In this document: piece by piece, positions 26,193 to 53,773 of the stretch
Layout of the letters: each line of letters starts with the position of its first letter
How positions within the stretch are numbered: position 1 is the stretch's first letter
DNA from: Escherichia coli
GTDB lineage: Bacteria; Pseudomonadota; Gammaproteobacteria; Enterobacterales; Enterobacteriaceae
Strand: one strand, 5' to 3'
DNA length: 64,000 nt
NCBI RefSeq assembly: GCF_013122565.1
Contig: NZ_CP053258.1
Notes under the pieces: model-generated
What the model was told of the DNA's origin: nothing
Database searches by the model: none
The model's input: the letters and a program-made list of their open reading frames with translations, nothing else
Made by a program: the position numbers and the translations under genes

Positions 26193-26194
26193 TG

Positions 26195-29108: not shown

Positions 29109-29117
29109 AGTTCGTCC

Positions 29118-29636: not shown

Positions 29637-29650
29637 GAAGGTTTCCTTTG

Positions 29651-30319: not shown

Positions 30320-30328
30320 TTCTCACCC

Positions 30329-31993: not shown

Positions 31994-32011
31994 AAATCTG
32001 CCTCAGAGAAT

Positions 32012-32824: not shown

Positions 32825-33105
32825 GGGTTAATTCCCTTTGGTAAGATTTTTTCGACATCGGTATGTGGTCGGGGAATAACGTGTACGGCTTTTACTTCGC
32901 CGACGTTACGCGCAGCTGCGGCACCTGCGTCTGTTGCCGCTTTTACCGCCCCGACATCACCACGAACGATGACGGTCACCAGCCCGGAACCTATTTTTTC
33001 GTAGCCGACCAGCAAAACATTTGCTGACTTCACCATGGCGTCTGCGGCCTCTATGGCGGCAGTTAAGCCTTTGGTTTCTACCATTCCTAACGCTTCTTGT
33101 TGCAT
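32821..33105 (-). CDS. pduA: microcompartment shell protein PduA (BMC hexamer)
   Basis: 94 aa [30 protein letters not shown]...; first gene of the operon. Confidence 0.95.
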
Positions 33106-34427: not shown

Positions 34428-34629
34428 CGAAATACTCTGGCAGTTATAAACGTTTATTTTTTTACTGTTTGTGATCTGCTTTCCGAACTTATTAAAAAGT
34501 CTCCCGCTTCACGGAGGCTTTTGTTATTGTCCTTTGTGCTTCTCGTCAGTAAATCATCAGGGATGATGTGAAGATTAAATGTAAAACAATTGTTTTGCTA
34601 TAACAATAAATTAACTGGGAGGTTTTATC

Positions 34630-35544
34630 ATGATTTCTGCGGCGACACTTAATTCAGAACTCATTAATAAAATCGCGCAGGATTTTGCGCAGGCGACCAG
34701 CCTTGCGGTTGTCGTGGTCAATATTCACGGCGATGAAATTTCCGAGCTGTTTAACTTCACTCCATTTTGTCAGATGATGCGGCAACACCCTCAGCTAAGC
34801 ACTCGATGTCGCATGAGTGATCGTTGTGGGGGCCTGGAAGCCTCTAAGTCCGATCAGCCTTGTATTTATCGCTGTCATGCCGGATTAACCGATTTCTCTA
34901 TTCCTCTGGTAATCGCCGGACATTTAGTTGGTTTTGTATTGTGCGGGCAAGTTCGTCTGCGTAATGATGATGTCGATTTGGTTGATATTCTGAATGTCGA
35001 TGATTGCTGGCAGGCAGATCCCGAATTACTTAATGAATTCCGCAAAGTCCCTGAGATGGATTACTCAAGAGTTATGGCCTCTGCTGATTTGTTGAAGTTG
35101 ATTGTGGAAAATTGCCTCAAAAAACAACTCAATTTTGTGGTTATTAAAGAAAACAAATCTCAGTCAGATTCGGTGCGCCAGACTCGTGCGCCTAATCCCC
35201 ACGACAATAAAATGAAAAAAGCTTTACGCTATATTGATGCACATTTATCAGACGATTTGCGTCTGGAGGATGTCGCCTCACATGTTTACCTAAGCCCTTA
35301 TTATTTCAGTAAGTTATTTAAGAAATACCATGGAATCGGGTTTAATGCGTGGGTAAACCAACAACGGATGGCCAGCGCTCGTGAGTTACTGTGCCATAGC
35401 GACTGGAGCATCGCCAGCATTGCGCGTAATTTAGGTTTTTCCCAAACCAGTTATTTTTGCAAAGTTTTCCGTCAGACTTATCAGGTTACGCCGCAGGTGT
35501 ATCGGCAGCAAGTGAATGAAAATGCGGCGATGGAAATGGTATAG
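34630..35544 (+). CDS. pocR: AraC-family regulator of pdu/cob (PocR)
   Basis: 304 aa; N-terminal PocR sensory domain and C-terminal AraC-type HTH. Confidence 0.93.
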   Translation: MISAATLNSELINKIAQDFAQATSLAVVVVNIHGDEISELFNFTPFCQMMRQHPQLSTRCRMSDRCGGLEASKSDQPCIYRCHAGLTDFSIPLVIAGHLVGFVLCGQVRLRNDDVDLVDILNVDDCWQADPELLNEFRKVPEMDYSRVMASADLLKLIVENCLKKQLNFVVIKENKSQSDSVRQTRAPNPHDNKMKKALRYIDAHLSDDLRLEDVASHVYLSPYYFSKLFKKYHGIGFNAWVNQQRMASARELLCHSDWSIASIARNLGFSQTSYFCKVFRQTYQVTPQVYRQQVNENAAMEMV

Positions 35545-35654
35545 AGTAAATGCCCCAAAAAAAGAGGACGGTTTAAATAAACTCTGGAATGAATAATTAA
35601 CGTTATTTACCTGTTATGGGAAAAGTAAAATCAGCTCATAACATACGCTGACAG

Positions 35655-35905
35655 GTGTGGCACATTTGTGCCTGGGAAGAGGGTGAAAATCCCTCGCAGC
35701 CCCCGCTGCTGTAATGCTGACAAACCCGAAAATGCCACTGATCGCGAGATTGGGAAGGTCGGGAGAGGATGACGCTAAGCCAGAAGACCAGTCTGTCAGT
35801 CAATACCAACAACTTCGGTGGGAAGTGGGTTGCCCGGAAGCGTTCGGTAGAGTACAGGCGCGTCTTTATACCCCTACCACCCTGAAAGGATCAGGGTATG
35901 GCGGC
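35655..35905 (+). promoter_or_regulatory. cobalamin (AdoCbl) riboswitch
   Basis: Conserved elements read directly: GGGAAGAGGGTGAAAATCCCTCGCAGCCCCCGCTGCTGTAA, GCCACTG...GGGAAGGTCGGG, and B12 box AAGCCAGAAGACCAGTC. Confidence 0.75.
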
Positions 35906-36028
35906 ATCATTTAGTTCTTTCATCGCAGTGCCGACAGGCACCAGGGATGCATTCAAGGTGTGGCAATATTGTTTCATGGCTTATCAACCAGAGCGCCATT
36001 ACAGGAAATTAAGTGGAGGGCGAGAGGC

Positions 36029-36466
36029 ATGAAAACGATAAAACCCGAATCGATAGCTCTTTTTTGCCTCTTATCTGGAGATGTGGATCTGGCGAAACAT
36101 CTGGCGGAAATATTGCCAATAACCTGTTTTGTTGGTGAGGACTGGCAGCAAGATTTCCAGCCTCTTAACGGTGGGCCTGTGCAATCGTTATCAGATGCGT
36201 ATAGCGATTATTCAGTGCTGCTATTGATAGCAGCTGAAAGCGAGATATCCGTACCAGAATGGCTCGCTCATTCTGAGGGAACGACGGTAATTTTGATTGC
36301 AGAACACAATGCCCGTTTACTGACTGGTCCGGCTGGTGGGGCTGTAGCATTAATCCATTATCTGAATGAAATCTGTCATTCCAGAGAAACCGCTGTCAAT
36401 GACGCATTTTGTCATACGTTAACACGAGGAAGTCGGGCTATTCCACAATGCCATCTTCTTTCGTAA
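36029..36466 (+). CDS. hypothetical protein downstream of the B12 riboswitch (ORF may extend to GTG 35960)
   Basis: ORF 35960..36466; internal ATG at 36029 is preceded by a GGAGGG Shine-Dalgarno; no family recognised by eye; sits where the cbi genes would be. Confidence 0.4.
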   Translation: MKTIKPESIALFCLLSGDVDLAKHLAEILPITCFVGEDWQQDFQPLNGGPVQSLSDAYSDYSVLLLIAAESEISVPEWLAHSEGTTVILIAEHNARLLTGPAGGAVALIHYLNEICHSRETAVNDAFCHTLTRGSRAIPQCHLLS

Positions 36467-36599
36467 TGGATTGAGAATGCTGGATTTTTAATTATATTAC
36501 GCGCAGTATTAATCGTGTAAATGTTTTGCGGTCAGCAACGGTGGGGGATCCATTGTTCTGTTCAATGAATACCATCATACAATTGAATCAGGAGTCGGT

Positions 36600-37145
36600 A
36601 TGATGATTTTGGTGACGGGGGGCGCACGGAGCGGGAAGAGTCGCCACGCAGAGGCGCTTATTGGGAACTCTTCACAGGTTCTGTATATCGCCACCTCGCA
36701 AATCCTTGATGATGAGATGGCTGCACGGATAGAACATCATCGGCAAGGCCGTCCGGCGCATTGGCGCACGGTGGAGCGTTGGCAACATCTTGATGAATTA
36801 ATTCATGTAGACATTAACCCGCATGAAGCTGTGTTGCTGGAATGCGTTACCACAATGGTGACTAATCTGTTGTTTGATTATGGCGGCGATAAAGACCCTG
36901 ATGAATGGGATTATCAGGCGATGGAACAGGCGATTAATGCTGAGATTCAGTCGTTGATTGCCGCCTGCCAACGTTGCCCCGCAAAGGTTGTATTAGTGAC
37001 TAACGAAGTGGGAATGGGGATTGTGCCGGAGAGTCGTCTGGCACGACATTTTCGTGATATTGCCGGGCGGGTAAATCAGCAGCTGGCCGCTGCGGCAAAT
37101 GAAGTATGGCTGGTGGTTTCGGGTATTGGAGTAAAAATCAAATGA
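36600..37145 (+). CDS. cobU: adenosylcobinamide kinase / adenosylcobinamide-phosphate guanylyltransferase
   Basis: 181 aa with P-loop GGARSGKS; matches CobU. Confidence 0.95.
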
Positions 37146-37885
37146 GTAAATTATTTTGGGCGATGCTCTCATTTATTACGCGTCTGCCTGTACCGCGTCG
37201 CTGGTCCCAGGGACTGGATTTCGAGCATTATTCTCGCGGTATTATTACTTTTCCTTTAATTGGATTATTGCTTGGCGCGATTAGCGGGCTGGTCTTCACG
37301 GTGCTGCAGGCATGGTGTGGCGTACCACTGGCGGCACTGTTTAGCGTGCTTGTGCTGGCGCTGATGACCGGGGGATTCCACCTGGACGGCCTCGCCGATA
37401 CCTGTGATGGCGTATTTTCTGCACGTAGCCGCGATCGCATGTTGGAAATCATGCGTGATAGCCGTTTAGGCACCCACGGCGGTCTGGCATTGATTTTTGT
37501 TGTACTGGCAAAGATTCTGGTGTTAAGCGAGTTGGCTCTGCGTGGCGAACCGATCCTTGCATCGCTGGCGGCAGCATGTGCGGTCAGCCGCGGGACTGCC
37601 GCATTATTGATGTATCGTCATCGTTATGCCCGGGAAGAAGGGCTTGGCAATGTGTTCATTGGCAAAATTGATGGGCGACAAACCTGCGTCACACTCGGCT
37701 TAGCCGCTATTTTTGCTGCCGTATTATTGCCGGGTATGCATGGTGTGGCTGCTATGGTGGTGACGGTGGTGGCGATTTTCATCCTCGGTCAGCTTCTCAA
37801 ACGTACGCTGGGCGGGCAAACCGGCGATACGCTGGGAGCTGCTATAGAGCTTGGTGAACTGGTCTTCCTGCTGGCACTGCTATAA
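37142..37885 (+). CDS. cobS: cobalamin 5'-phosphate synthase
   Basis: Translation [21 protein letters not shown]..., polytopic membrane protein; start overlaps the cobU stop (ATGA). Confidence 0.93.
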
Positions 37886-39037: not shown

Positions 39038-39964
39038 ATGATGCGTCGTGTAAATATTCTTTGCTCATTTGCTCTGCTTTTTGCCAGCCATACTAGCCTG
39101 GCGGTAACCTATCCATTACCTCCAGAGGGTAGCCGTTTAGTGGGGCAGTCGCTTACTGTAACTGTTCCTGATCACAATACCCAGCCGCTGGAGACTTTTG
39201 CCGCACAATACGGGCAAGGGTTAAGTAACATGCTTGAAGCGAACCCGGGCGCTGATGTTTTTTTGCCGAAGTCTGGCTCGCAACTCACCATTCCGCAGCA
39301 ACTGATTTTGCCCGCCACTGTTCGTAAAGGGATTGTGGTTAACGTCGCTGAGATGCGTCTTTATTACTACCCGCCAGACAGTAATACTGTGGAAGTCTTT
39401 CCTATTGGTATCGGCCAGGCTGGGCGAGAAACCCCGCGTAACTGGGTGACTACCGTTGAACGTAAACAAGAAGCACCAACCTGGACGCCAACGCCGAACA
39501 CTCGGCGCGAATATGCGAAACGAGGGGAGAGTTTGCCCGCATTTGTTCCTGCGGGGCCCGATAATCCCATGGGGCTGTACGCGATTTATATTGGCAGGTT
39601 GTATGCCATCCATGGTACCAATGCCAATTTTGGTATTGGACTTCGGGTAAGTCAGGGCTGTATTCGTCTGCGCAATGACGATATCAAGTATCTGTTTGAT
39701 AATGTTCCTGTAGGTACTCGTGTGCAAATTATCGACCAGCCAGTAAAATACACCACTGAACCAGATGGCTCGAACTGGCTGGAAGTTCATGAGCCGCTGT
39801 CGCGCAATCGTGCAGAATATGAGTCTGACCGAAAAGTGCCATTGCCTGTAACCCCATCTTTGCGGGCGTTTATCAACGGGCAAGAAGTTGATGTGAATCG
39901 CGCAAATGCTGCGTTGCAACGACGATCGGGAATGCCTGTGAATATCAACCGTAACGGATTTTGA
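39038..39964 (+). CDS. ldtA: L,D-transpeptidase (YkuD domain), LdtA/ErfK
   Basis: Signal peptide plus YkuD catalytic motif [24 protein letters not shown]. Confidence 0.93.
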
Positions 39965-40137
39965 CATTCAAAACGTCTGGTTTTTCGGTCTGAGTAAGCA
40001 TTACGTCATGCAGAACAGGTTGTTTCGAATCATACAAATCATAATTTTCTTCTCATATGCGCATCTCTTATGAGCATAATCGTTATACTCTTCTGATTTA
40101 TACATGTTTGCTGATGACATGATCAATGGAAAAGAGA

Positions 40138-41103
40138 ATGACGAAACAGAAAAAAAACAGCCGCTGGCAGGGTTACGATCCTCGCTACATATACTCGCTC
40201 GTGGTCAGACGTTATTTTGCGGATATGAAAACCAAGATTGAGATTGCAGAGGAGCTTGGCGTTTCCCGCTTTAAAGTTGCCAGATTGATCGATGAGGCGA
40301 TCGAACAGGATTACGTGAGGTTTATCTTCCCTAAGCAGCAAGCGATGGATGAAGAAATCGCCAATAATCTACGGAAAAAATTTCATCTGGAAGATGCAAT
40401 TGTTCTTTCAGTTGCTGAATCCTGGACGACGCAAGAAGAACTCAATCACAAATTGGGTGAAGTCACCGCTGAATATCTTATGCAATCTCTTCATGAAGGT
40501 ATGAAAGTGGGGATCGCCTGGGGACGTGTATTATCAAGCACGGTCAGTAAGTTGAGCAAGTTGCCTCCTTTAGACGTTGTGCAGTTATCTGGCGTACATC
40601 CGGGGATAGAGTTTAGTCAAGGGCCAATAGATCTTATTCATAAGATCGCTGCCATTTCGCAGGGAAAAGCGCACCCAATGTACGTGCCGATGTGGGTCGA
40701 TGACGAAGAGCTTGCTGCCAGACTGGCAGGTGATCCTGCGGTATTAGATACACAGCAATATTACTCACAGTTGGATGTGGTTATCACCGGGATAGGTGAC
40801 TGGAAATCAGGTTCTTCAAGCTTGTATAAAATATTTCCGGATACCTGGTGCGAAGCTTTGTTTCAACAAGATATCGCTGCGGATGTGTGTATCTCGTTGG
40901 TCAACAGGGAAGGGAAGATTCTTCATAGTCCTATTGAACGTCTGGGATTTGGCATTTCGACGGATCAACTACAAAAAGCCAAAAAAGTGATTGGTGTCGC
41001 TGGAGGAGAAGAAAAATATGAAGGCATTCTTGCTTCGCTGAAATCCGGACTTTTGAATGTCTTAATTACTGATTTTGATACGGCCATTAAACTTCTGGAT
41101 TAA
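40138..41103 (+). CDS. SorC/DeoR(Bsu)-family transcriptional regulator with sugar-phosphate-binding domain
   Basis: N-terminal HTH (KIEIAEELGVSRFKVARLI) and C-terminal SorC-type sugar-binding domain; ATG 40138 preceded by AAGAGA; first gene of the island. Confidence 0.8.
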   Translation: MTKQKKNSRWQGYDPRYIYSLVVRRYFADMKTKIEIAEELGVSRFKVARLIDEAIEQDYVRFIFPKQQAMDEEIANNLRKKFHLEDAIVLSVAESWTTQEELNHKLGEVTAEYLMQSLHEGMKVGIAWGRVLSSTVSKLSKLPPLDVVQLSGVHPGIEFSQGPIDLIHKIAAISQGKAHPMYVPMWVDDEELAARLAGDPAVLDTQQYYSQLDVVITGIGDWKSGSSSLYKIFPDTWCEALFQQDIAADVCISLVNREGKILHSPIERLGFGISTDQLQKAKKVIGVAGGEEKYEGILASLKSGLLNVLITDFDTAIKLLD

Positions 41104-41154
41104 TAGCCATATCAGTGAAGAAAGGGCAGTACCGCTGATTCTGCCCTTTTAATT

Positions 41155-41613
41155 TCAGGATGCTGCGAGCGTATCCTCTACATATTTAGCCACGTGCGTT
41201 GCAGGTAAATTGCGGCAAGTCTCAACAAAGGCGTTATCCTGAAACAGTGTGAATAAACGACGCAATATCGACATATGTTGATCACTGGTGGCAAATGCCA
41301 GGTTAAACATAATGCTACAATCAACTGTTAAATCAGCATCTTCCATTTGCCCGAAAGTGACATCATTGGCGAAACGAACAATACTGATACTGTTTACATT
41401 TACCAGCGTGTAATCGGCATGGGGAATGGCGATACCCTGACCGTTTGCCATCATTAGTCCTGTCGGATAGCTTTTTTCACGTTCCAGGCAGGCGTCAATG
41501 TATTCTGCAGTGATGTAGCCTTTTTCCAATAATTGCGTACCGGCAAAGGTGATCGCAGTTTGATAGTCACTGATGCTGTTATCAACATCATTCACCAGAA
41601 TTTCAAGTTTCAT
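41155..41613 (-). CDS. PTS enzyme IIA component (PTS_EIIA_2, fructose/mannitol/galactitol type)
   Basis: 152 aa with phospho-His motif GIAIPHA. Confidence 0.85.
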   Translation of the reverse strand: MKLEILVNDVDNSISDYQTAITFAGTQLLEKGYITAEYIDACLEREKSYPTGLMMANGQGIAIPHADYTLVNVNSISIVRFANDVTFGQMEDADLTVDCSIMFNLAFATSDQHMSILRRLFTLFQDNAFVETCRNLPATHVAKYVEDTLAAS

Positions 41614-41623
41614 TGCACACCTG

Positions 41624-41908
41624 TTATTTCAACATCTCTTCTTTAACTGCAGCGAAAATCTCATCTTCGCCCAGACCTGTCAGTAATCCAGCGCCAACGA
41701 TGACACGAGTAGTAATGGCCGGGTTATCGAGTTTGGTCGATGAAACCACCAGGTCATAGCTGTTGAAGGTATCGCTGGTGCATGCCATTAACGAAGATTT
41801 ATCGACTTGCGCTTCAATTTTCTCTTCTTTCAGGAAGTCCTGCAGTACAGAGACCATGATGGAAGATGAGGCAATTCCGTTTCCGCAAACTACTAAGATT
41901 TTTTTCAT
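41624..41908 (-). CDS. PTS enzyme IIB component (galactitol/ascorbate type)
   Basis: 94 aa; N-terminal KILVVCGNGIASS with phospho-Cys. Confidence 0.85.
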   Translation of the reverse strand: MKKILVVCGNGIASSSIMVSVLQDFLKEEKIEAQVDKSSLMACTSDTFNSYDLVVSSTKLDNPAITTRVIVGAGLLTGLGEDEIFAAVKEEMLK

Positions 41909-41931
41909 TTGATTATTCCTCTGTAAAAGAT

Positions 41932-43302
41932 TTAAAGCGCTTTTTCCAAATCCGTTTCAATCTGGCGACGTGATTTTTGTTTAATTAAGTATCCAATAGA
42001 TAACAAAAGGATACCTGCCATCAAATAGCCAATGATTCCAACATGGCTCAGGGCGGCAAACAGACCAGTAAATGGATTCGCTGACGGGTTAAGTGAAGAG
42101 TACATTACGCTGGCATCCGGGTTTGTACCAAATTTCTGGAAGACTTCGTTGGTAGCCGGTGCCATCCACGACGCAATATACAGACCACCACCGAACAAAA
42201 TGATCGAGGTCACCCAGGTGCGAATAATGTTGCCATTAAAAACAGGTACCATGCAGGCAATAAAAAACACAAACTGAGAGAGGTCACCCAGTGGCATAAC
42301 GCGGTTGCCGGGCAAGATCACGGCGAGGATCACAATGACCGGGATCAGTAATAATGCAGGGGCGATAACTGATGGATGACCCACAATCAGAGCAGTGTCC
42401 ATACCAACAGTGATTTGACGATCCGGGAACCGTTTGACCAGTTTTTTGCGTGCTACGTTGGAAAGCGGAACAAGTCCTTCCATCATGATAGAGGTCATAC
42501 GTGGTAACAGAAGCATGACCGCAGCCAGATACATCCCTAACTGTAGGCTGGCGATTATGGTGTGGTATGGGGATTTCCAGCCATAACCACAAAAGCCCAA
42601 CAAAATACCAATAATAAAACCAACCATAGTTGGATCGCCGAGAATGCCAAACCGTTTTTGAATAGTTTCGGCGGTCACATTCAGATTACGGAAGCCTGGG
42701 ATGCGATCATAAATCCAGTTGAATGGATAAGCGAAAAGTAAGTAGGTATTGGCAACCGGGTGAGAGATCGCAACACCTTTTGGCAGGTTAAAGAATTTTT
42801 CGTTATTTTTAGCACCAAGATCGGCAGCGATCAGCGCCCAGACATGGAATAGCGCGGCGGTCAATGCGCCATACAGGAAACTACCAGAATAGACGCCAAC
42901 AATTGCCCCCATTGACGCATTTTGATGAAGGTTGAAAACATCAACGTTAACACAGTCAGTCAGGCGGGCGACCAGCATTGCAATATTTACCGCAACACAG
43001 AGGGGAATAATGATAGCGCCCATGCTGGAGCCAAATCCCATAACCGCAGTCGCTGCGCCACCAACATCGATGGCACTGAGCGAGGAACCTGTTGCTTCTG
43101 CTAATCCGGTGACTGCCGGTTGCATTTTTTCCAGCATCAGTTTGATGGTCATGGTTAGCGCAATGAAACCAATGCCTACTTTGATGGCAGACGAGATACA
43201 TTCAGAAAGAGGACGGCCAAGTATCTTCATCAGTACCAGGAAGATGACCGGGATAAATATAAAATTTCCCAGATCGTTTATAAATTGCGTGATCAGTTCC
43301 AT
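41932..43302 (-). CDS. PTS enzyme IIC permease (galactitol-class)
   Basis: 456 aa polytopic membrane protein; GatC/SgcC-like. Confidence 0.85.
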   Translation of the reverse strand: MELITQFINDLGNFIFIPVIFLVLMKILGRPLSECISSAIKVGIGFIALTMTIKLMLEKMQPAVTGLAEATGSSLSAIDVGGAATAVMGFGSSMGAIIIPLCVAVNIAMLVARLTDCVNVDVFNLHQNASMGAIVGVYSGSFLYGALTAALFHVWALIAADLGAKNNEKFFNLPKGVAISHPVANTYLLFAYPFNWIYDRIPGFRNLNVTAETIQKRFGILGDPTMVGFIIGILLGFCGYGWKSPYHTIIASLQLGMYLAAVMLLLPRMTSIMMEGLVPLSNVARKKLVKRFPDRQITVGMDTALIVGHPSVIAPALLLIPVIVILAVILPGNRVMPLGDLSQFVFFIACMVPVFNGNIIRTWVTSIILFGGGLYIASWMAPATNEVFQKFGTNPDASVMYSSLNPSANPFTGLFAALSHVGIIGYLMAGILLLSIGYLIKQKSRRQIETDLEKAL

Positions 43303-43305
43303 ACA

Positions 43306-43842
43306 TTAACCCTCAGATTTTTCATCATCTGGTCGGAAACCCATATTCCAGCGTACATCAGCGGGCTTAACCAGCAATGCATTATCGTTACGTTCAGCTT
43401 CTAGTAAGTTCTTTTTAGAATTTTCTCTGGCGGTGGTGAAGTCGAATGGGTTATCCAACCATGCATCGACAATCATTTTGCTGTATTCGAGATCGTTGAC
43501 CCGGCAACCCAGTCCAATAACTTGTGCGTTATTGCTGAGTCGCGCCCGCTTTGCGGAGTAGGGGTTAGTAACCGCAACGGCTCTTATGCCCCAGTGTTTG
43601 TTGATCTGACAAGTAAAGCCAATGCCAGTCCCACAAATGTAAATTCCCAGACGGCACTCATCGCGTTGAATAATGCCTGCCATTTCGTCGGCCAGACGCG
43701 CGAAGTTATTGACACCTTGTTCCTTACATGTGACGGGATCGTACACGATCTCCATGTTTTTCTCTTCTATGAGGTATTTTTTTATCTCCTCTTTACGTGC
43801 AAAACCTACATCATCGCTTGCGATAGCAATCTTTGTTTTCAT
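43306..43842 (-). CDS. RpiB/LacA/LacB-family sugar-phosphate isomerase
   Basis: 178 aa; KIAIASDDVGF start and active-site CGTGIG motif; first gene of the minus-strand PTS operon. Confidence 0.8.
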   Translation of the reverse strand: MKTKIAIASDDVGFARKEEIKKYLIEEKNMEIVYDPVTCKEQGVNNFARLADEMAGIIQRDECRLGIYICGTGIGFTCQINKHWGIRAVAVTNPYSAKRARLSNNAQVIGLGCRVNDLEYSKMIVDAWLDNPFDFTTARENSKKNLLEAERNDNALLVKPADVRWNMGFRPDDEKSEG

Positions 43843-44190
43843 TTCATTTTGCCTGTCGTTAAGTAACTAAAGCCAAGTATGCTGTTGGTAAATATTGGTT
43901 GTCAATTGAGATCTAAATCACAAAATTTATAACTGATTGATTTTTAATGAATTAAAAACCAATAAAAACAAATAAAAAATAAATTAAGCCAATTAAAACA
44001 AAGTAGGCTTGCACAAGCACTTTGCAATTAATAATAAAAACACATTAAATATCAATCATATATATGAATTGCCAAACATTGTCTTTATTGGGCTTATTTG
44101 TACTTTCTACAGTTAGTGTTTGTTTTTGTTTGCATCATCTGTGCTATGCTTGGCGTTTTCTAAGATGGGCAATAGATTTCAGGAGGAAGG

Positions 44191-44946
44191 ATGTATCTGG
44201 TTGATGAAAGGCGAAAGTTAATACTTGAAGACTTAATGTCGGCAGGTACGGTCTATGTCAGTGATCTTGCACGAAAGTATGAAGTAACGTATGAGACCAT
44301 CAGGAAAGATTTGACCCATCTTGAACAAAAAGGGCTGCTGATCAAAAGCCATGGTGGGGCGACTTTAAAGCAAAGGGCCATAGAGCATCCCTTTCAGGTC
44401 AGGGAAAAAGAAAATAACTCTTATAAGAAGGCGATAGCTCGTAAAGCGCTTGATTTCATTCCGCCTAATAGTTCGATGATTATCGGTACGGGCAGTACCA
44501 CTTTTGAGCTGGCTAACCTGTTATGTATGAAGTCTGGGTTTAAAATCTTCACAGATTCGCTCCCCGTTGCCAGTGTGTTGATTGAATCTGACAATCAGGT
44601 TTTTCTCTTTGGCGGCGAACTGCGTAGAAAGAGTTCCTCAGTGTTTGGGGGGTGGGCGGTATCTATGATCAACGATATACATGTTGATCTCTGTTTCATT
44701 GGAACCGACGGCTTTAGTAACATGACTGGTCCATCGACGCCTTCTTCTTCTGATGCGTTTTTGGATCGCACGATAATTTCGCACTCAGACAAAAAATATA
44801 TCCTCGGTGATTACACCAAGTTTGAGCGCAGCAGTTTGTTTAAGATCTGCGACTGGTCGGAGATCACCGCCCTTATTACCAACGATCATGCCGACAAAGA
44901 GGGGATTGCCGAAGTCGCAAAATACACGTCAGTAATAACCTGTTAG
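44191..44946 (+). CDS. DeoR-family transcriptional regulator
   Basis: 251 aa; N-terminal DeoR HTH (RRKLILEDLMSAGTVYVSDLARKYEVTYETIRKDL) and C-terminal DeoR-C sensor domain; AGGAGG Shine-Dalgarno. Confidence 0.85.
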   Translation: MYLVDERRKLILEDLMSAGTVYVSDLARKYEVTYETIRKDLTHLEQKGLLIKSHGGATLKQRAIEHPFQVREKENNSYKKAIARKALDFIPPNSSMIIGTGSTTFELANLLCMKSGFKIFTDSLPVASVLIESDNQVFLFGGELRRKSSSVFGGWAVSMINDIHVDLCFIGTDGFSNMTGPSTPSSSDAFLDRTIISHSDKKYILGDYTKFERSSLFKICDWSEITALITNDHADKEGIAEVAKYTSVITC

Positions 44947-45123
44947 AACTCCCTACAACACGCCTTCTCCCTTCGAATCAGCTTTGCCAAATGTAATCAT
45001 TTCCAAATTATCAAGTGAGCATCCATGGTGATGCTTGCTTAGCGCCCTTTATTGAATGCATCCTCTGCATATTGCCAGTTGCACCTCATTTTTTGCGAAG
45101 AAATCATTTTTTGAATCACGGTT

Positions 45124-45262
45124 TGCTCATATGAGCATAAATGCTGTCGCCATTATGTGCTTTTTTGTGATCTGGATTTAATTTCTCAGATCTCGTCATT
45201 TATCCACAGGATCGTTGTGCTATAACTGCTCATATGAATATTGTTCAATGCTCATGTGAGCA
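45124..45262. promoter_or_regulatory. three copies of a TGCTCATATGAGCA-type palindromic operator upstream of the second PTS operon
   Basis: TGCTCATATGAGCA at 45124..45137 (perfect 14-bp palindrome), TGCTCATATGAATA at 45227..45240, TGCTCATGTGAGCA at 45249..45262. Confidence 0.6.
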
Positions 45263-45284
45263 TTGTGGGGTGAGGGGGAAGGAT

Positions 45285-45728
45285 ATGATATCGATCAGTG
45301 TTGCCGATGGTGCGGGACTACAGAACTACGATGCCGTGCTTGAACATATTTATAACACGCATCGTGAAACGAATACGGTGAAAGAGAGCTGGCTCAATGC
45401 TATGCGTAAACGCGAAGCGGAATATCCGACAGGAATAGAACTGGAAGGTTATTCTATCGCTATACCACACTGTGATAGTGAACATGCGAATCAACCGGCT
45501 ATTTATATCATCCGTCTGCCAGACGCAATACCTGTGAACAGGGCTGATGAAGATGGAATATTGTGGGTCAGACTCGTCGTTAATCTTATTGTTACGGATC
45601 CTGCTGACCAGCTTCGATTGTTAAAGTCATTATTTAACCATCTCCAAAATGAAGAATTTTACCAAAACTTACTGACACTTCCCGTCGATGATGCAAAAGC
45701 ACTTTTTGTGTCCAAAATAATCCAATAG
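45285..45728 (+). CDS. PTS enzyme IIA component (PTS_EIIA_2)
   Basis: Phospho-His motif SIAIPHC; ATG 45285 preceded by a GGGGGAAGGA ribosome-binding site; ORF-track start 45234 is probably an upstream extension. Confidence 0.85.
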   Translation: MISISVADGAGLQNYDAVLEHIYNTHRETNTVKESWLNAMRKREAEYPTGIELEGYSIAIPHCDSEHANQPAIYIIRLPDAIPVNRADEDGILWVRLVVNLIVTDPADQLRLLKSLFNHLQNEEFYQNLLTLPVDDAKALFVSKIIQ

Positions 45729-45746
45729 TAAAAACTGGAGTTTATT

Positions 45747-46040
45747 ATGATTAATATTCTTGTTGCTTGTGGTAGCGGTGTCGCTACATCTACGCTTGCT
45801 GCTGATGAAGTGAAGTCAGTATGTGCTGAATATGGTATTACGGCATTTAAAATCAACAAATGCAGTATGGCTGAACTTTCTTCTGAGATGGCTCATGCAG
45901 ATATTGTACTCACAACTAATAACTATAAAGGTGATATTGGGAAACCACATATGAGTGTTGCAGGTTTTGTAACGGGTATTAATGAAGGAGCATTACGCAA
46001 GAAATTAGGAGAGTTATTAACTGAATTAGCAAATAGCTAA
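45747..46040 (+). CDS. PTS enzyme IIB component (galactitol type)
   Basis: 97 aa; INILVACGSGVATS phospho-Cys motif. Confidence 0.85.
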   Translation: MINILVACGSGVATSTLAADEVKSVCAEYGITAFKINKCSMAELSSEMAHADIVLTTNNYKGDIGKPHMSVAGFVTGINEGALRKKLGELLTELANS

Positions 46041-46060
46041 ACCTGACAGGAATAATAAAA

Positions 46061-47314
46061 ATGGAAATGTTGAAAAATTTAATGGAAACCATCACCGGAA
46101 TGGGGGCAACTGCAATACTGCCGCTGGTGATATTTATTTTAGGTCTGGTGTTCAGAATGAAACCAGGTGCCGCGATCAAGTCGGGCATCACAGTCGGTAT
46201 TGGTTTTATTGGTTTAGGTTTGGTTGTTGGTTTATTAAATAGTTCATTACAGCCAGCTATTGAGTATTACTCAAAAGTAGGTAGTGGTTTTACGGTTGCA
46301 GATATTGGTTGGCCAGCAGTCGGTGCTGCTGCATGGGTAGCACCTTTTGCCGCATTAGTGATACCAGTTGGCATCGTACTTAACCTGATACTGGTGCGCC
46401 TGAAATTAACCAAAACGTTAAATGTTGATATCTGGAACTATATGCATTTTTTAGTTCCGGGCGCTCTGGCATATTTTGTGTTCGACAGTTTTATCATCGG
46501 CTTCTCTGTCGCGGTGGCTTTGAGTATTGCGGCTCTGTTTATTGGCGATTTGATTGCGCCCAGATGGCAAAAATATTATGGACTCGAGGGAACAACCTGT
46601 ACCACGATGATTCATATCGGCTGGACTCTACCGTTCGCCTGGGTAGTAAATAAAATCATTGATTACATCCCAGGGTTAAATAAGTTAGATGTTGATTTAA
46701 ACAGCGTGCAAAAACGCCTGGGTGTCTTTGGTGAACCTGCAATTATCGGTGTTATCGTTGGCGCATTACTCGGAGTTTTAACGAAACAGGCAATTACCAC
46801 AATTGTTCCCATGGCGATGGGGGTTGCTGGCGTAATGGTATTATTGCCTAAAGTGGTCGGTGTGCTGATGGAAGGTCTTAACCCGATTGGGAAAAGTGCT
46901 AAAGAAATCATGCAAAAACAGATGGGTAAAGATGCAGAATTAAACATCGGTATGGATTGTGCACTGGCGTTGGGGGATCCGGCTACGGTCACCGTGACAG
47001 TAATTACCATTCCTTTAACCATGCTATGTGCTCTGGTATTACCTGATATTAAGATCTTCCCAATCGGCGTATTGATGTCAATTATTTATATGACCACCAT
47101 GACCGTAATGGCGAGCAACGGTAACGTGATTCGTTCGATTATCTCGACCTTGTTATTCTGCGTTGTAGTGATGTATTTAGGCGGTTATGTCGCACCAGGG
47201 GCAACGCAATTTTTAGCTGGAGCCGGTGTAGGCTTGCAAGGACAAGGTACTGATTTTGTATTAACCGGCCCGTGGGAAATTTTAACCTATTGGTTGAGTA
47301 CCGTATTACATTGA
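46061..47314 (+). CDS. PTS enzyme IIC permease (galactitol-class)
   Basis: 417 aa polytopic membrane protein; GatC-like. Confidence 0.85.
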   Translation: MEMLKNLMETITGMGATAILPLVIFILGLVFRMKPGAAIKSGITVGIGFIGLGLVVGLLNSSLQPAIEYYSKVGSGFTVADIGWPAVGAAAWVAPFAALVIPVGIVLNLILVRLKLTKTLNVDIWNYMHFLVPGALAYFVFDSFIIGFSVAVALSIAALFIGDLIAPRWQKYYGLEGTTCTTMIHIGWTLPFAWVVNKIIDYIPGLNKLDVDLNSVQKRLGVFGEPAIIGVIVGALLGVLTKQAITTIVPMAMGVAGVMVLLPKVVGVLMEGLNPIGKSAKEIMQKQMGKDAELNIGMDCALALGDPATVTVTVITIPLTMLCALVLPDIKIFPIGVLMSIIYMTTMTVMASNGNVIRSIISTLLFCVVVMYLGGYVAPGATQFLAGAGVGLQGQGTDFVLTGPWEILTYWLSTVLH

Positions 47315-47336
47315 TTTAATAATCTGGAGTTTTAAC

Positions 47337-47981
47337 ATGGCAAAAATATTACCTTCTATATTTGGCGCGGATATTTTACGCCTGAAAGATGAAATTCATT
47401 TTCTGGAAGAGGAACAAACCGAAATATTGCACGTTGATTTAATGGATGGCACTTATGTCAGTAATATTGCCTTTGGCCCAAATCAAATAGCAGCAATGAA
47501 AAAAGCCAGTTCGATGATCTTTGATGTGCACATGATGCTGGCAAATCCTGAGCGACATATTGATGATGTAATCAATACCGGGGCGGAGATGATTTCTGTA
47601 CATTATGAATCGACGCCACATGTACATTATATTATTCAAAAAATCAAAAAAGCGGGTCGCAAAGCAGGTGTTGTGCTTAATCCTGGGACACCTGAATCTG
47701 TCATCGAGTATTTATTAGATGATATTGATTATATATTGTTAATGACAATTAACCCAGGGCAACCAGGCCAGACATTTATTCATAAAAGTCTGGAGAAAAT
47801 CCGTAATACCAAAAAAATGATATCTGGCAGAGATATTCAAATTGAAGTGGATGGTGGCGTTAATCTTGATAATGTAAAACAAGTTAAAGAAGCAGGGGCT
47901 GACCTTATTGTTGTTGGTGGTGCCTTATTTAACAAACAGCCTCGTGAAAGTTATCAGGCATTGAAAATCGCTATTCAGTGA
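47337..47981 (+). CDS. ribulose-phosphate 3-epimerase family protein (Rpe/AlsE/SgcE-like)
   Basis: 214 aa TIM-barrel epimerase; HVDLMDG and IEVDGG motifs. Confidence 0.85.
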   Translation: MAKILPSIFGADILRLKDEIHFLEEEQTEILHVDLMDGTYVSNIAFGPNQIAAMKKASSMIFDVHMMLANPERHIDDVINTGAEMISVHYESTPHVHYIIQKIKKAGRKAGVVLNPGTPESVIEYLLDDIDYILLMTINPGQPGQTFIHKSLEKIRNTKKMISGRDIQIEVDGGVNLDNVKQVKEAGADLIVVGGALFNKQPRESYQALKIAIQ

Positions 47982-48078
47982 TCACAATCTAAAAATTTCA
48001 CATCCAGTTAAGTGAGGTTTTCGATTTCATATCGGGAGGAAAACCTCAGCTAAAAAATGTCTTTAATGGAGAAAAGTA

Positions 48079-48831
48079 ATGAGTAATTTTGCAGGTAAAG
48101 TGGTTTTAGTTACCGGAGGTGCTCACGGTATTGGCAAAGGGATAGCTAAACAATTTGCTGATCGTGGTGCACATACTGTTATTGTTGACTATAACGAAGA
48201 GAACGGCAAGGCCACTGCAGCAGAGTTAACTTTTGGCGATGTTAAATCGCTGTTTGTTAAAACAGATGTCTCTGATCCACAGGCATTAGTGGATGTACGG
48301 GAAAAAGTATTTGCTACCTTTGGTCGTATTGATGTGTTGATATTAAATGCCGGTGTGGCATTTGCCAATAAAGTTAACAATATTTCTTTTGAGGAATGGA
48401 ATAAGACTATCGCAATTAATTTATCGGGATTATTTAATACCGTTAAGGCGTTTTATGATGATTTCCTGACAAATAAGGGATCTATTGTTTATATCTCATC
48501 GGGATCAGCACTTTCGGGGACTGGAGGCGGTGTGAGTTATCCAGCCAGTAAAGCGGGAGGCGAAGGGTTGATTCGCGGTCTGGCGAAGGAGTTAGGACCA
48601 AAAGGCGTCAATGTTAATGCGATTGCTCCCCGCTTAATAGACACCGGAGAGATGATGCGGGTCAACTATCCGACACAAGCCGATTTAGACGCTGTCCTGG
48701 AAAAAATACCCGTCCGTCGTCTGGGAACTATCGATGATGTGGCTAACCTGGCAATATTTTTGGCAGATAAAGATAACTCTTATATTCAGGGACAAACCAT
48801 TTTAATGGATGGTGGCCGGACTATTGCTTAA
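48079..48831 (+). CDS. short-chain dehydrogenase/reductase (SDR)
   Basis: 250 aa; TGGAHGIGKGIA Rossmann motif and YPASK catalytic Tyr-x3-Lys. Confidence 0.85.
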   Translation: MSNFAGKVVLVTGGAHGIGKGIAKQFADRGAHTVIVDYNEENGKATAAELTFGDVKSLFVKTDVSDPQALVDVREKVFATFGRIDVLILNAGVAFANKVNNISFEEWNKTIAINLSGLFNTVKAFYDDFLTNKGSIVYISSGSALSGTGGGVSYPASKAGGEGLIRGLAKELGPKGVNVNAIAPRLIDTGEMMRVNYPTQADLDAVLEKIPVRRLGTIDDVANLAIFLADKDNSYIQGQTILMDGGRTIA

Positions 48832-48846
48832 AAAGGGAGAGAAAAA

Positions 48847-49407
48847 ATGAGTGTTCAGGAAAATACTATTAATATTCTGCATGAATTAGAGAGTAATGCG
48901 CTGAAGATTGACGATGCTCAGGCTTCACAGTTCATTTCGCAAATCAGAAATGCCCGGCATATTTTTTTGCAGGGAGCTGGTCGCAGTGGCATTGCTATTC
49001 GCGCTTTTGCTAATCGCTTGCTGCATTTAGGTTTTTCAGTAAGCGTTGTGGGAGAAATATCATCACCGCATACTCAACCTGGAGATCTATTAATTATTGG
49101 GTCAGGCAGTGGTGAAACTACCAGTTTGAAAAGTCTGGCACAAAAAGCAGTTGATAGCGGAGTAAACGTCGCTCTGGTAACTATGAAAGCTGATTCAACG
49201 ATCGGTAAATTAGCTCAATCTGTGTTGGTACTACCAGGAAGTGTGAAAGACGATAACAATCGTGTTGCAGGCGCTTTCGCGCAACCAATGGGCTCAGCTT
49301 TTGAGCAACTCTGCTTTATTACTTATGATGCAATTGTTCTGGAGTTGATGTCTGAACTGGGTGAAAGCAGTGCCACAATGTTTACCCGACACGCTGATCT
49401 GGAATGA
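48847..49407 (+). CDS. SIS-domain sugar-phosphate isomerase (6-phospho-3-hexuloisomerase-like)
   Basis: 186 aa single SIS domain (LQGAGRSGIAIRAF...IGSGSGET). Confidence 0.75.
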   Translation: MSVQENTINILHELESNALKIDDAQASQFISQIRNARHIFLQGAGRSGIAIRAFANRLLHLGFSVSVVGEISSPHTQPGDLLIIGSGSGETTSLKSLAQKAVDSGVNVALVTMKADSTIGKLAQSVLVLPGSVKDDNNRVAGAFAQPMGSAFEQLCFITYDAIVLELMSELGESSATMFTRHADLE

Positions 49408-49425
49408 CTAAAAAGTTGGTAATTA

Positions 49426-49462
49426 GAAAGCAAAAAGCCTGCTAGAAAGCAGGCTTTTTTGA
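49426..49462. terminator. bidirectional terminator between the island operon and asnV
   Basis: AAAAAGCCTGCTAGAAAGCAGGCTTTTTT hairpin. Confidence 0.75.
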
Positions 49463-49465
49463 ATT

Positions 49466-49541
49466 TGGCTCCTCTGACTGGACTCGAACCAGTGACATAC
49501 GGATTAACAGTCCGCCGTTCTACCGACTGAACTACAGAGGA
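49466..49541 (-). tRNA. asnV: tRNA-Asn (GUU)
   Basis: 76-nt reverse complement of TCCTCTGTAGTTCAGTCGGTAGAACGGCGGACTGTTAATCCGTATGTCACTGGTTCGAGTCCAGTCAGAGGAGCCA; anticodon loop CTGTTAA. Confidence 0.95.
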
Positions 49542-51873: not shown

Positions 51874-51949
51874 TGGCTCCTCTGACTGGACTCGAACCAG
51901 TGACATACGGATTAACAGTCCGCCGTTCTACCGACTGAACTACAGAGGA
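51874..51949 (-). tRNA. asnU: tRNA-Asn (GUU)
   Basis: Identical 76-nt sequence to the copy at 49466..49541. Confidence 0.95.
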
Positions 51950-53697: not shown

Positions 53698-53773
53698 TCC
53701 TCTGTAGTTCAGTCGGTAGAACGGCGGACTGTTAATCCGTATGTCACTGGTTCGAGTCCAGTCAGAGGAGCCA
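53698..53773 (+). tRNA. asnW: tRNA-Asn (GUU)
   Basis: TCCTCTGTAGTTCAGTCGGTAGAACGGCGGACTGTTAATCCGTATGTCACTGGTTCGAGTCCAGTCAGAGGAGCCA ending in CCA. Confidence 0.95.

Follow-up and report, generated by a model that had tools for sequence, protein, structure and literature searches.

Which compound is imported and degraded by the products of a twelve-gene block that separates ldtA from the tRNA-Asn gene asnV in a minority of Escherichia coli strains? The block (hereafter the island) was analysed within a stretch of 64,000 nucleotides of contig NZ_CP053258.1 (assembly GCF_013122565.1), referred to as the window, in which the gene order is cobS-cobT-ldtA-(12 genes)-asnV-nac-cbl-asnU-yeeO-asnW. In K-12 (DH10B), ldtA and asnV are separated by a gap of 55 bp, with no block between them. 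The island consists of two separable cassettes, each built around a phosphotransferase system (PTS), one of which is nested in inverted orientation within the other. Judged by the encoded enzymes, it very probably serves PTS-mediated import, NAD-linked oxidation and isomerisation of the imported compound into the pentose phosphate pathway. As to the compound itself, a four-carbon substrate is tentatively proposed and weighed against other substrates below.

A preliminary description of this DNA, made from the sequence alone, had reported twelve intact genes at a site that is empty in K-12 and had assigned them to two galactitol-class PTS and a set of sugar-phosphate enzymes. All twelve open reading frames (ORFs) were recovered intact at the positions and on the strands given there, and the DH10B gap confirmed the empty site. 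Likewise, the family assignments were upheld by NCBIfam profile scans with equivalog cut-offs, with which the Pfam annotation of 72–92% identical Providencia orthologs agrees, and every motif quoted (IAIPH twice, CGNGIASS, CGSGVATS, CGTGIG, TGGAHGIGKG and YPASK) is present in the translations. Both IIC proteins possess the EIIC-GAT domain (PF03611 on the Providencia orthologs) and are members of the PTS Gat family (TC 4.A.5), sharing about 29% identity with each other. In keeping with this family, the IIBs are separate proteins of the Cys type and the IIAs are of the EIIA_2 type with the active-site His (PF02302 and PF00359 on the orthologs). The start of the second IIA gene had to be revised. 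It probably lies at the ATG at position 45285, which is preceded by GGGGGAAGGA and corresponds to the RefSeq start of the 98% identical ortholog of strain PapRG-06-5; the start at 45234 given previously is unlikely, since it sits inside an operator-like palindrome.

In order to evaluate the organisation of the island, gene layouts were compared in about 35 loci of other taxa, comprising 31 loci found by screening one genome per species with the short-chain dehydrogenase/reductase (SDR) as probe (SDR at least 61% identical), metagenomic contexts and loci obtained with the RpiB-like protein as second probe. Cassette 2 is composed of the SorC-type regulator gene and the genes for IIA, IIB, IIC, an Rpe-like epimerase, the SDR and a protein resembling 6-phospho-3-hexuloisomerase (PHI). 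The six-gene set from IIA to the PHI-like gene recurs throughout the 31 loci, most of which contain it in full; incomplete versions were found mainly in short or boundary-cut contigs, and the gene order is permuted in some loci. Its hosts are Enterobacterales, Enterococcus, Streptococcus, Lachnospiraceae, Peptoniphilaceae, Selenomonadales, Paenibacillus, Gilliamella and one actinobacterial metagenome-assembled genome (MAG). Cassette 1 is composed of the DeoR-family regulator gene and, divergent from it, the genes for the RpiB-like isomerase, IIC, IIB, IIA and, in some taxa, a further PHI-like protein. At its locus in Streptococcus gallolyticus, it stands alone among housekeeping genes, together with its own PHI-like gene, which implies that a PTS, a PHI-type and an RpiB-type isomerase would constitute a complete pathway.

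Where both cassettes adjoin, as in E. raffinosus, L. plantarum and Gilliamella, three arrangements were observed, namely those of the Enterobacteriaceae, of Enterococcus/L. plantarum and of Gilliamella. In Enterobacteriaceae and Providencia, cassette 1 is inserted in inverted orientation between the SorC-type gene and the cassette 2 IIA gene (IIA2). Since the region upstream of IIA2 (approximately 45120–45265) is homologous in nested and non-nested layouts, the nested block is placed at approximately 41104–45120. E. coli, E. wuhouensis, Entomohabitans and Providencia lack the PHI-like gene of cassette 1, and all four have cassette 2 with its PHI-like gene adjacent; the gene of cassette 1 persists in S. 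gallolyticus, Tetragenococcus, L. plantarum, E. raffinosus, K. oxytoca, Citrobacter and Enterobacter EA-1. Furthermore, a Gilliamella MAG (3930–11350) contains both cassettes as one fused operon in which IIA and the PHI-like gene occur only once each, and in Providencia no recognisable IIA2 was found in the corresponding 500-bp gap (7180–7677 of the locus). Because parts such as the PHI-like protein and IIA are shared between the cassettes or dispensable in one of them, this pattern suggests that both feed one pathway via a common, PHI-dependent intermediate. The cassette proteins are 74–96% identical to those of other genera (Enterobacter, Citrobacter, K. oxytoca, Entomohabitans), whereas DNA identity amounts to only about 75%.

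The enzymes of the island each belong to well-known families and deviate from them in characteristic ways. The Rpe-like protein passes the rpe equivalog TIGR01163 (235.3 vs. a cut-off of 212.6) and keeps the metal ligands (His, Asp, His, Asp) within HVDLMDG, DVHMM and VDGG. Both of its phosphate loops are altered, reading NPGQPGQ and VVGGALF as compared to NPGFGGQ and AGS in the five best solved Rpe structures, and altered loops recur, with variants, across other cassette loci. The PHI-like protein passes the HxlB equivalog-domain model TIGR03127 (209.6 vs. 160) and aligns end to end with YckF/HxlB of B. subtilis (1m3s) with every motif kept; GAGRSG, GSGSGET, QPMGSAFEQ and RHADLE align with 1m3s and also with archaeal PHIs. 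A gene for the partner enzyme 3-hexulose-6-phosphate synthase (HxlA/HPS) was detected neither in the island nor in the related loci that were examined. Thus, in comparison with HxlAB of the ribulose monophosphate (RuMP) pathway, which serves formaldehyde fixation, the island protein reaches the HxlB equivalog but has no HxlA partner and is encoded in a PTS catabolic operon.

For the SDR, equivalog scores were uninformative as to the substrate, none of 231 family matches exceeding its equivalog cut-off, and the nearest neighbours in the PDB are generic FabG-like enzymes. In classical SDRs, an Asp at the position equivalent to that in VIVDYNEE confers preference for NAD; the island protein carries this Asp and is predicted to be an NAD+-dependent catabolic dehydrogenase. 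At the protein level it is 75–93% identical across phyla, while its operon partners drop to 35–50%. Since the nucleotide identity of the SDR gene across phyla is ordinary (67–78%), this conservation is attributed to very strong purifying selection, and a recent exchange of the SDR gene between phyla was rejected. In part, the conservation would also represent an effect of ascertainment, as the L. plantarum copy is 66% identical.

The RpiB-like protein belongs to a family of which 107 sequences were compared. In all 107 members Ser replaces His99 of RpiB, and Asp or Asn (Asp in the island protein) replaces His10; moreover, the GGRH phosphate motif is absent and a C-terminal extension is conserved. 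Bona fide RpiBs carry DH...(Q/E)HND...GGRH, and the His is kept in E. coli RpiB, C. thermocellum RpiB and a LacA-like protein. The motif RLSNNAQ of the His-less family is common to Rhizobium EryI, Brucella EryI (PDB 5ifz) and a fungal relative (3qd5), and Rhizobium EryI passes the NCBIfam D-erythrulose-4-phosphate isomerase equivalog NF051858 (257.7 vs. 240). As a whole, the combination of an SDR, an altered Rpe, a PHI without HPS and a His-less RpiB matches no characterised pathway.

Based on these components, the following general course of catabolism is considered very probable. Enzyme I (EI) and HPr of the host would supply phosphoryl groups to both PTS sets. The cassette 2 PTS would import an acyclic polyol as its phosphate, the SDR would oxidise this polyol phosphate with NAD+, and the Rpe-like epimerase together with the carbonyl-shifting PHI-like isomerase would rearrange the resulting keto-sugar phosphate. 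Cassette 1 includes no dehydrogenase and must therefore import a compound that is already at the oxidation level of a sugar, which would be a related keto-sugar; in E. coli, where cassette 1 appears to have lost its own PHI-like gene, it would borrow that of cassette 2. Finally, the His-less RpiB-like protein would act as ketose-to-aldose isomerase, with both cassettes meeting at one intermediate and yielding a metabolite of the pentose phosphate pathway.

A ketose taken up by a PTS is typically phosphorylated at C1. Since the four-carbon series is the only one in which such a 1-phosphate can be brought to a central metabolite by exactly two carbonyl shifts, a C4 substrate was considered. From this carbonyl-shift logic and the EryI-like signature of the His-less RpiB, a route from tetritols and erythrulose to erythrose 4-phosphate emerges as a possible, tentative assignment. 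In cassette 1, erythrulose would be converted by the PTS to erythrulose 1-phosphate, which equals 3-tetrulose 4-phosphate, then by the PHI-like enzyme to D-erythrulose 4-phosphate and by the RpiB-like enzyme to D-erythrose 4-phosphate. In cassette 2, erythritol or threitol would enter as tetritol phosphate, be oxidised by the SDR with NAD+ to a tetrulose phosphate, and reach D-erythrulose 4-phosphate via the Rpe-like and PHI-like enzymes and D-erythrose 4-phosphate via the RpiB-like enzyme. As regards the missing His, mutagenesis of a trypanosomal RpiB reportedly assigned to this residue the opening of the furanose ring; tetrose phosphates cannot cyclise.

A precedent for the sequence of reaction types is available in the ery pathway of Brucella and Rhizobium (EryA-B-C-H-I with EryD and EryR) and in the threitol/erythritol routes of Mycobacterium. 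These comprise a polyol-phosphate dehydrogenase, an epimerase or racemase acting beside the carbonyl, a 3-keto to 2-keto isomerase and an RpiB-family isomerase, and this order fits the island. The two isomerisations proposed for cassette 1 correspond to the closing steps of erythritol degradation in Brucella (EryH and EryI) and of L-erythrulose use, in which phosphorylated L-erythrulose is isomerised to erythrose 4-phosphate; two members of the RpiB family, EryI and EYI1 of Yarrowia, take part in the catabolism of erythritol (PMC5992420). By analogy, the SDR would stand in for EryB, the Rpe-like protein for the racemase EryC, the PTS for the kinase EryA and the PHI-like protein for EryH. Like the island, the rhizobial ery locus encodes one regulator of the SorC type and one of the DeoR type in combination with a His-less, LSNNAQ-bearing member of the RpiB family. 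In terms of homology, only this RpiB-family step is common to both, below the equivalog cut-off, whereas the other steps rely on different folds: kinase vs. PTS, FAD-type EryB vs. SDR, xylose-isomerase-fold EryC vs. Rpe barrel and TIM-type EryH vs. SIS/PHI. No homologs of EryA, EryB, EryC or EryH were found among the ORFs of the island or in the family scans.

Several observations weigh against a four-carbon substrate. The PHI-like and Rpe-like proteins pass the HxlB and rpe equivalogs, and these scores, taken at face value, would point to C6 and C5 substrates (3-hexulose 6-phosphate and ribulose 5-phosphate). The RpiB-like protein itself scores only 99.7 on NF051858 (cut-off 240) and is equidistant from E. 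coli RpiB (37–40% identity) and EryI (33–40%). Its sharing of RLSNNAQ could be convergent or could reflect mere ketose-to-aldose use on ribulose 5-phosphate; the protein carries the complete His-less signature (D-[SD]...CGTG...LSN[ND]AQ, no GGRH), which need not be diagnostic of C4 substrates. The island regulators are only 25–27% identical to EryD and EryR, a similarity at the family level, and were rejected as their orthologs. Moreover, the solitary position of cassette 1 in S. gallolyticus was seen at the level of the locus and not genome-wide. In API 50CH panels, erythritol is usually scored negative for L. plantarum and enterococci, both of which carry the cassettes; such routine panels include neither threitols nor erythrulose. 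A PTS for tetritols or tetruloses is not known. The more far-reaching view that the island represents the first PTS-dependent four-carbon sugar pathway, spread by plasmids among Enterobacterales of the gut and of plants, lactic acid bacteria and Lachnospiraceae, and taking up erythrulose via cassette 1 and erythritol and/or threitol via cassette 2, is regarded as somewhat doubtful.

Among the alternatives, a pentitol system of the Listeria Axl or Bacillus Atl type fares best and is rated as rather unlikely. D-Arabitol, ribitol or xylitol would enter through the plus-strand PTS and the SDR would form ribulose 5-phosphate or xylulose 5-phosphate, while the Rpe-like and RpiB-like proteins would be genuine pentose phosphate enzymes raising the flux and the second PTS would serve a related pentitol or pentose. 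This agrees with the rpe equivalog score and with the finding that the best solved relatives of the Rpe-like protein are true Rpe enzymes; in addition, a His-less RpiB would presumably still run ribulose 5-phosphate to ribose 5-phosphate, and many of the host taxa are associated with plants or the gut, where pentitols occur. The operons compared were Listeria PTS-Axl (lmo2659-2668) and lmo0501-0508, atlABCD of B. methanolicus and the arabitol-phosphate dehydrogenase operon of E. avium, which resemble the island, at the level of reaction types only, in combining a Gat-family PTS, polyol-phosphate oxidation and Rpe/RpiB-type enzymes in one operon. Those of Listeria also carry a transketolase or transaldolase, and the pentitol-phosphate dehydrogenases of these systems are members of the Zn-dependent medium-chain family.

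The pentitol systems further show that a Gat-family PTS labelled 'galactitol' may transport another compound: that of B. methanolicus is a D-arabitol transporter, those of Listeria and E. avium are pentitol transporters from operons with pentose phosphate enzymes, and the Firmicute orthologs of the cassette share an MtlR/LicR-type activator with PTS regulation domains (PRD) with pentitol operons (PMC6685057). Regarding gene content, the island deviates from these operons by its SDR and His-less RpiB and, in the enterobacterial versions, by regulators of the SorC and DeoR repressor types, where the pentitol operons have a medium-chain dehydrogenase, a PRD activator and no PHI-like isomerase. 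Their characterised pentitol-phosphate dehydrogenases are annotated as being of the sorbitol- or galactitol-1-phosphate dehydrogenase type and not as SDRs (PMC6685057). A pentitol route would leave no role for the PHI-like protein, which is present in every complete cassette and duplicated in cassette 1, and cassette 1 on its own, without a dehydrogenase, cannot use a pentitol. Furthermore, the phosphate loops of the Rpe-like protein differ from those of canonical Rpe in the cassette loci.

A rare hexose/hexitol system of the als type is considered improbable. The plus-strand PTS would take up allitol or D-altritol, the minus-strand PTS would take up D-allose or D-allulose, and both would be channelled to fructose 6-phosphate via allulose 6-phosphate or 3-hexulose 6-phosphate by the SDR, an AlsE-like Rpe, a true PHI and an RpiB-like allose-6-phosphate isomerase. 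Such a route would make direct use of the PHI-like protein, a full-motif HxlB homolog over the equivalog cut-off whose canonical product is fructose 6-phosphate, and the pairing of RpiB with an Rpe-family epimerase, known from the D-allose pathway of E. coli, likewise counts for it; an analogy to als-type pathways had already been drawn in the preliminary description. The Rpe-like protein nevertheless fails the AlsE equivalog NF007266 (178.4 vs. a cut-off of 271) and is nearer to Rpe than to AlsE (E-values 3e-56 vs. 3e-35), and the RpiB-like family is devoid of the His that is said to open the ring, as a cyclic aldohexose 6-phosphate would need. In addition, either the epimerase or the PHI would suffice, which leaves the strict co-conservation of both unaccounted for, and cassette 1 alone, having no epimerase, cannot take allose 6-phosphate to fructose 6-phosphate by known chemistry.

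A second galactitol operon equivalent to gat is very improbable and is largely refuted by the gene content. This designation follows RefSeq/PGAP and Prokka-style names such as 'PTS galactitol transporter subunit IIC/IIA' and appeared in a study of Crohn's disease E. coli, in which the locus of LF82 was termed a galactitol operon by annotation, with genes for 3-hexulose-6-phosphate isomerase, 'FabG', Rpe, galactitol IIB and a 'glucitol repressor'; of 27 genomes associated with Crohn's disease, 9 had these genes, as compared to 2 of 24 from commensals (p = 0.042, uncorrected), and no experiment was reported (PMC5517970). In the NRG857c genome, the asnV-ldtA segment of about 28 kb was mentioned to contain 'a PTS' and said to be unstudied (PMC7232551). 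Apart from these two annotation-level mentions, full-text literature searches yielded no experimental study of the cassette.

None of the island components reaches a Gat equivalog cut-off: IIA2 scores 136.6 and IIA1 81.6 (both vs. 139), IIB2 50.7 (vs. 95), IIB1 has no GatB match, and the IICs obtain 350.6 (IIC1) and 322.5 (IIC2) on the galactitol-specific model with its cut-off of 542.2. With E. coli gat (gatYZABCDR; TC 4.A.5) the island has in common three separate PTS proteins of the same families, a DeoR-family regulator and an NAD-dependent dehydrogenase that presumably oxidises the polyol phosphate. In gat, however, this is the Zn-dependent GatD instead of an SDR, and a tagatose-bisphosphate aldolase and a kinase are encoded; no ORF for a GatD-type dehydrogenase, tagatose-6-phosphate kinase or GatYZ aldolase was found in 39941–49414. 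Conversely, the island possesses additional Rpe-like, PHI-like and RpiB-like proteins, which have no role in the tagatose 6-phosphate route, as well as two PTS sets and a SorC-type regulator. As mentioned above, the B. methanolicus PTS that bore this label turned out to transport D-arabitol (PMC6685057).

That the island is a decaying, functionless remnant hitch-hiking at a recombination hot spot is hardly credible: truncated copies in about 51 genomes, insertion sequences (IS) in some full copies and the presence in only 4% of complete genomes are opposed by twelve intact ORFs, a synonymous to nonsynonymous ratio of approximately 5–8:1 between lineages differing by 1.4–2.7%, and proteins 74–96% identical to those of other genera at a DNA identity of about 75%.

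The probability left over from the readings listed is assigned to substrates outside those considered. Among orphan systems, the sgc operon of E. coli K-12 (sgcXBCQAER) likewise combines a Gat-family PTS with the Rpe-family protein SgcE and a DeoR-family regulator; compared by annotation, it differs from the island in having no SDR, PHI-like or RpiB-like gene and in carrying sgcX and sgcQ. The island belongs to the PTS Gat family, appears to work like the polyol-PTS operons of Firmicutes and is an accessory PTS catabolic island of an ordinary kind.

With respect to regulation, the preliminary description had implied pairing of the SorC-family protein with the minus-strand operon and of the DeoR protein with the plus-strand unit; gene layouts in other taxa and a conserved palindrome reverse this pairing. 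In the eight cassette-2-only loci of Enterobacterales (Pantoea, Erwinia, Brenneria, Izhakiella, Pseudocitrobacter and UBA5654), the SorC-type gene immediately precedes IIA, and a DeoR gene is absent. In Enterococcus and Gilliamella, the RpiB-like operon is accompanied by a divergently oriented DeoR ortholog, 63–73% identical where scored; in L. plantarum and S. gallolyticus, this position is taken by a gene of the DeoR family. Because of these layouts, it is proposed that the SorC-type regulator governs cassette 2, i.e., the plus-strand operon, and the DeoR regulator cassette 1, i.e., the minus-strand operon. In Firmicutes, an activator of the PRD/Mga type holds the place of the SorC-type gene at cassette 2.

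The palindrome TGCTCATATGAGCA occurs exactly at 45124 and was also found at 45227 and 45249, all upstream of IIA2, as well as at 40050 upstream of the SorC-type gene. Allowing at most two mismatches, these are four matches in the window as compared to 0.26 expected, and none of 100 shuffled sequences reached four. Two of the boxes overlap the alternative IIA2 start at 45234. Furthermore, exact TGCTCAYRTGAGCA is present upstream of IIA2 in eight Enterobacterales loci outside E. coli, some of them from genomes without the DeoR gene. The boxes would fit putative operators of an autoregulated SorC-type repressor of the plus-strand operon. The divergent promoter region between cassette 1 and the DeoR gene features a conserved -35 element TTGACA at 43900–43905 (minus strand) for the minus-strand operon and AT-rich direct repeats at 43951–44056. 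This region is only about 90% identical between strains, whereas neighbouring genes are 98–99% identical; a hypervariable patch at approximately 43990–44085, with about 30 substitutions between strains, could represent allelic replacement or diversifying regulatory sequence.

The exact limits of the island were determined by alignment with K-12. The twelve genes stated in the preliminary description stand, while the limits had to be moved to 39941, inside ldtA, and 49414, 51 bp from asnV. On the left, homology to K-12 ends after ...GGAATGCCTGTG at 39940, within the 3' end of ldtA; on the right, it restarts with GTTGGTAATTAG at 49415. The 37 bp of K-12 sequence replaced by the island correspond to the last ten ldtA codons, the stop codon and 6 nt, and about the last eight ldtA codons plus the stop codon are supplied by the island instead. 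In consequence, LdtA of the window strain terminates with ...PVNINRNGF and has 308 aa, as compared to ...PVQISSGSRQMF and 311 aa in the K-12 form. K-12 LdtA matches NCBIfam NF007563 over positions 1–310 of 310, and LdtA of the window only up to position 304; since the former fits the profile to its end, the K-12-type tail is the family norm and the island allele the derived one. An origin of the empty K-12 site by simple deletion of the island was not supported, as both alleles contain private sequence and the K-12 LdtA tail is complete with respect to the profile.

The guanine-cytosine (GC) content of the island is 42.4%, that of the flanks 51.6% and 47.5%. As noted in the preliminary description, neither an integrase or transposase ORF in the island nor, in a repeat search, direct or inverted repeats at either junction were detected. 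Classification as a tRNA-integrated genomic island was rejected on account of these negative results and of junctions that lie within ldtA and 51 bp from asnV. The hairpin in the 51 bp shared with K-12 can serve as terminator for both asnV and the plus-strand operon. Three tRNA-Asn genes are located within 4.3 kb of the window (49466–49541, 51874–51949 and 53698–53773) and obtained identical covariance-model scores. The coordinates of all features are summarised in Table 1.

Table 1. Positions of the genes and sequence features of the ldtA-asnV interval in the window.
Feature	Position	Strand	Remarks
Whole island	39941-49414		9,474 bp in place of 37 bp of K-12 sequence; junction alignment vs. 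K-12
ldtA	39038-39964	+	last 24 nt (39941-39964) island-derived; non-canonical tail ...PVNINRNGF*
Two operator-like boxes related to TGCTCATATGAGCA	40050-40079		40050-40063 (2 mismatches) and half-site 40065-40079
SorC/DeoR(Bacillus)-type sugar-phosphate-binding regulator	40138-41103	+	NCBIfam, family level; Pfam Sugar-bind in Providencia ortholog
Cassette 1 PTS IIA (EIIA_2 type, IAIPH)	41155-41613	-	NCBIfam, ortholog Pfam
Cassette 1 PTS IIB (CGNGIASS)	41624-41908	-	NCBIfam, ortholog Pfam
Cassette 1 PTS IIC, Gat family, 456 aa	41932-43302	-	TIGR00827, E = 1e-104, under trusted cut-off
RpiB-like isomerase, His-less subfamily (D-D...CGTGIG...RLSNNAQ)	43306-43842	-	conserved C-terminal extension
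Divergent promoter region, cassette 1/DeoR gene	43843-44190		conserved block, repeats, hypervariable patch
DeoR/GlpR-family regulator	44191-44946	+	NCBIfam
Three TGCTCAYRTGAGCA palindromes	45124-45262 (45124, 45227, 45249)		putative SorC-type operators upstream of IIA2
Cassette 2 PTS IIA (IAIPH)	45285-45728	+	GatA model 136.6 vs. cut-off 139
Cassette 2 PTS IIB (CGSGVATS)	45747-46040	+	NCBIfam
Cassette 2 PTS IIC, Gat family, 417 aa	46061-47314	+	TIGR00827, E = 4e-96, under cut-off
Rpe-family 3-epimerase	47337-47981	+	passes rpe equivalog
Classical SDR dehydrogenase (TGGAHGIGKG, YPASK)	48079-48831	+	NCBIfam, family level
SIS-domain 6-phospho-3-hexuloisomerase-like protein (PHI/HxlB type)	48847-49407	+	TIGR03127
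51 bp common with K-12	49415-49465		symmetric hairpin at 49432-49459
tRNA-Asn asnV	49466-49541	-	3' end towards island

Comparison of the ldtA-asnV interval across E. coli, as suggested in the preliminary description, identified the block as accessory. Full copies were found in 225 of 5,426 complete genomes (4.1%), invariably on the chromosome and at this site, and the carriers include ATCC 8739, NRG857c, ST1193 and isolates from many animal hosts. Relative to PapRG-06-5, the flanks are 98.6% and the island 98.6–98.8% identical; relative to NRG857c (phylogroup B2), the respective values are 97.6–98.4% and 97.3–98.0%. That island and flanks diverge equally between strains strengthens the view, put forward in the preliminary description, that the insertion is old. 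Synonymous and nonsynonymous codon differences amount to 91:12 in comparison with PapRG-06-5 and 80:16 in comparison with NRG857c, and no ORF is broken; the island is under purifying selection. A recent transfer from a known donor was rejected, as even the nearest relatives of the island in other species reach a DNA identity of only about 75%.

Truncated copies were found in approximately 51 further genomes, which have lost most of the island and still contain the island-type ldtA tail. Those listed all keep the ldtA end and stop after 7288, 5683, 3447, 2426, 2055, 1319, 819 or 244 nt. In all three truncated copies inspected, the truncation point abuts a copy of IS1; in two of them, the IS1 copy is followed by an integrase pseudogene or fragment and next by asnV, and in the third an integrase-domain gene is located further on. 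Some full-length copies contain IS insertions. Deletions adjacent to IS1 thus appear to erode the island from the asnV side. In other strains, integrase-borne elements occupy asnV as attachment site, and in NRG857c an 18.6-kb element of this kind lies between asnV and the intact PTS block. These data support the view that the PTS block is an old resident, older than the elements using the asnV attachment site. The NRG857c element (NC_017634.1, locus 19100–37348), which resembles a defence island, contains a P4-type integrase pseudogene, IS200, mazEF and ISEc1, as well as genes for two hypothetical proteins of very large size and for an ATP-dependent nuclease adjoining a UvrD-type helicase.

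Beyond the chromosome of E. coli, the SDR gene was detected on 36 plasmids of PLSDB (15 from Klebsiella, 15 from Pantoea, three from Enterobacter and one each from Escherichia, Erwinia and Duffyella), of which ten are conjugative. The conjugative IncFIB/IncFII plasmid NZ_CP054998.1 of K. pneumoniae (83811–93707) carries a 13-gene nested version that includes a second PHI/hxlB-like gene and adjoins ISKpn26 and a beta-glucoside PTS. Furthermore, on a metagenome contig of Clostridia the cassette is flanked by IS elements and ParA/ParB genes. Carriage on plasmids and next to IS elements accounts for the patchy distribution across phyla.

Further observations concern the strain and the surroundings of the island. 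The window segments 18748–36415 and 39941–49465 are at most about 98.4% identical over their length to any of the 5,426 genomes, and the source lineage seems to be absent from the complete-genome set. At 103–2051, on the ugd/wzz side of the O-antigen region, identity to PapRG-06-5 amounts to 89.6%, as compared to 97.5–98.6% for the rest of the shared window, which is consistent with recombination around the O-antigen locus. The genes for 1,2-propanediol utilisation (pdu) form a complete 17.7-kb operon between tmaR and cobU (18748–36415). This operon is complete in 636 of the 5,426 E. coli genomes, and PapRG-06-5, the closest island-bearing genome, retains only a pduV remnant at this spot. LF82-type pdu and the PTS locus tend to neighbour each other (PMC5517970).

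In summary, the island constitutes an orphan catabolic module that is intact, strongly selected, mobile on plasmids and shared between phyla. It is present in clinically watched E. coli, i.e., the adherent-invasive E. coli (AIEC) strains LF82/NRG857c and ST1193, as well as in the reference strain ATCC 8739, and has been mislabelled 'galactitol' in databases and in one paper. Concrete objects for testing are available in the predicted operator TGCTCATATGAGCA, the predicted pairing of regulators and operons, and a block of 9.5 kb that can be moved into K-12. Knowledge of the substrate would fill a gap in strain-specific nutrition models of E. coli and in arguments on niche partitioning in the gut. 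Should the four-carbon route prove true, it would entail new specificities for the Rpe, PHI and RpiB families and a non-homologous, PTS-based counterpart of the EryA-B-C-H-I route of Brucella and Rhizobium in about 4% of E. coli. It would also overturn the assumption that erythritol-type sweeteners and ascorbate-derived erythrulose go unfermented by common gut and food bacteria.

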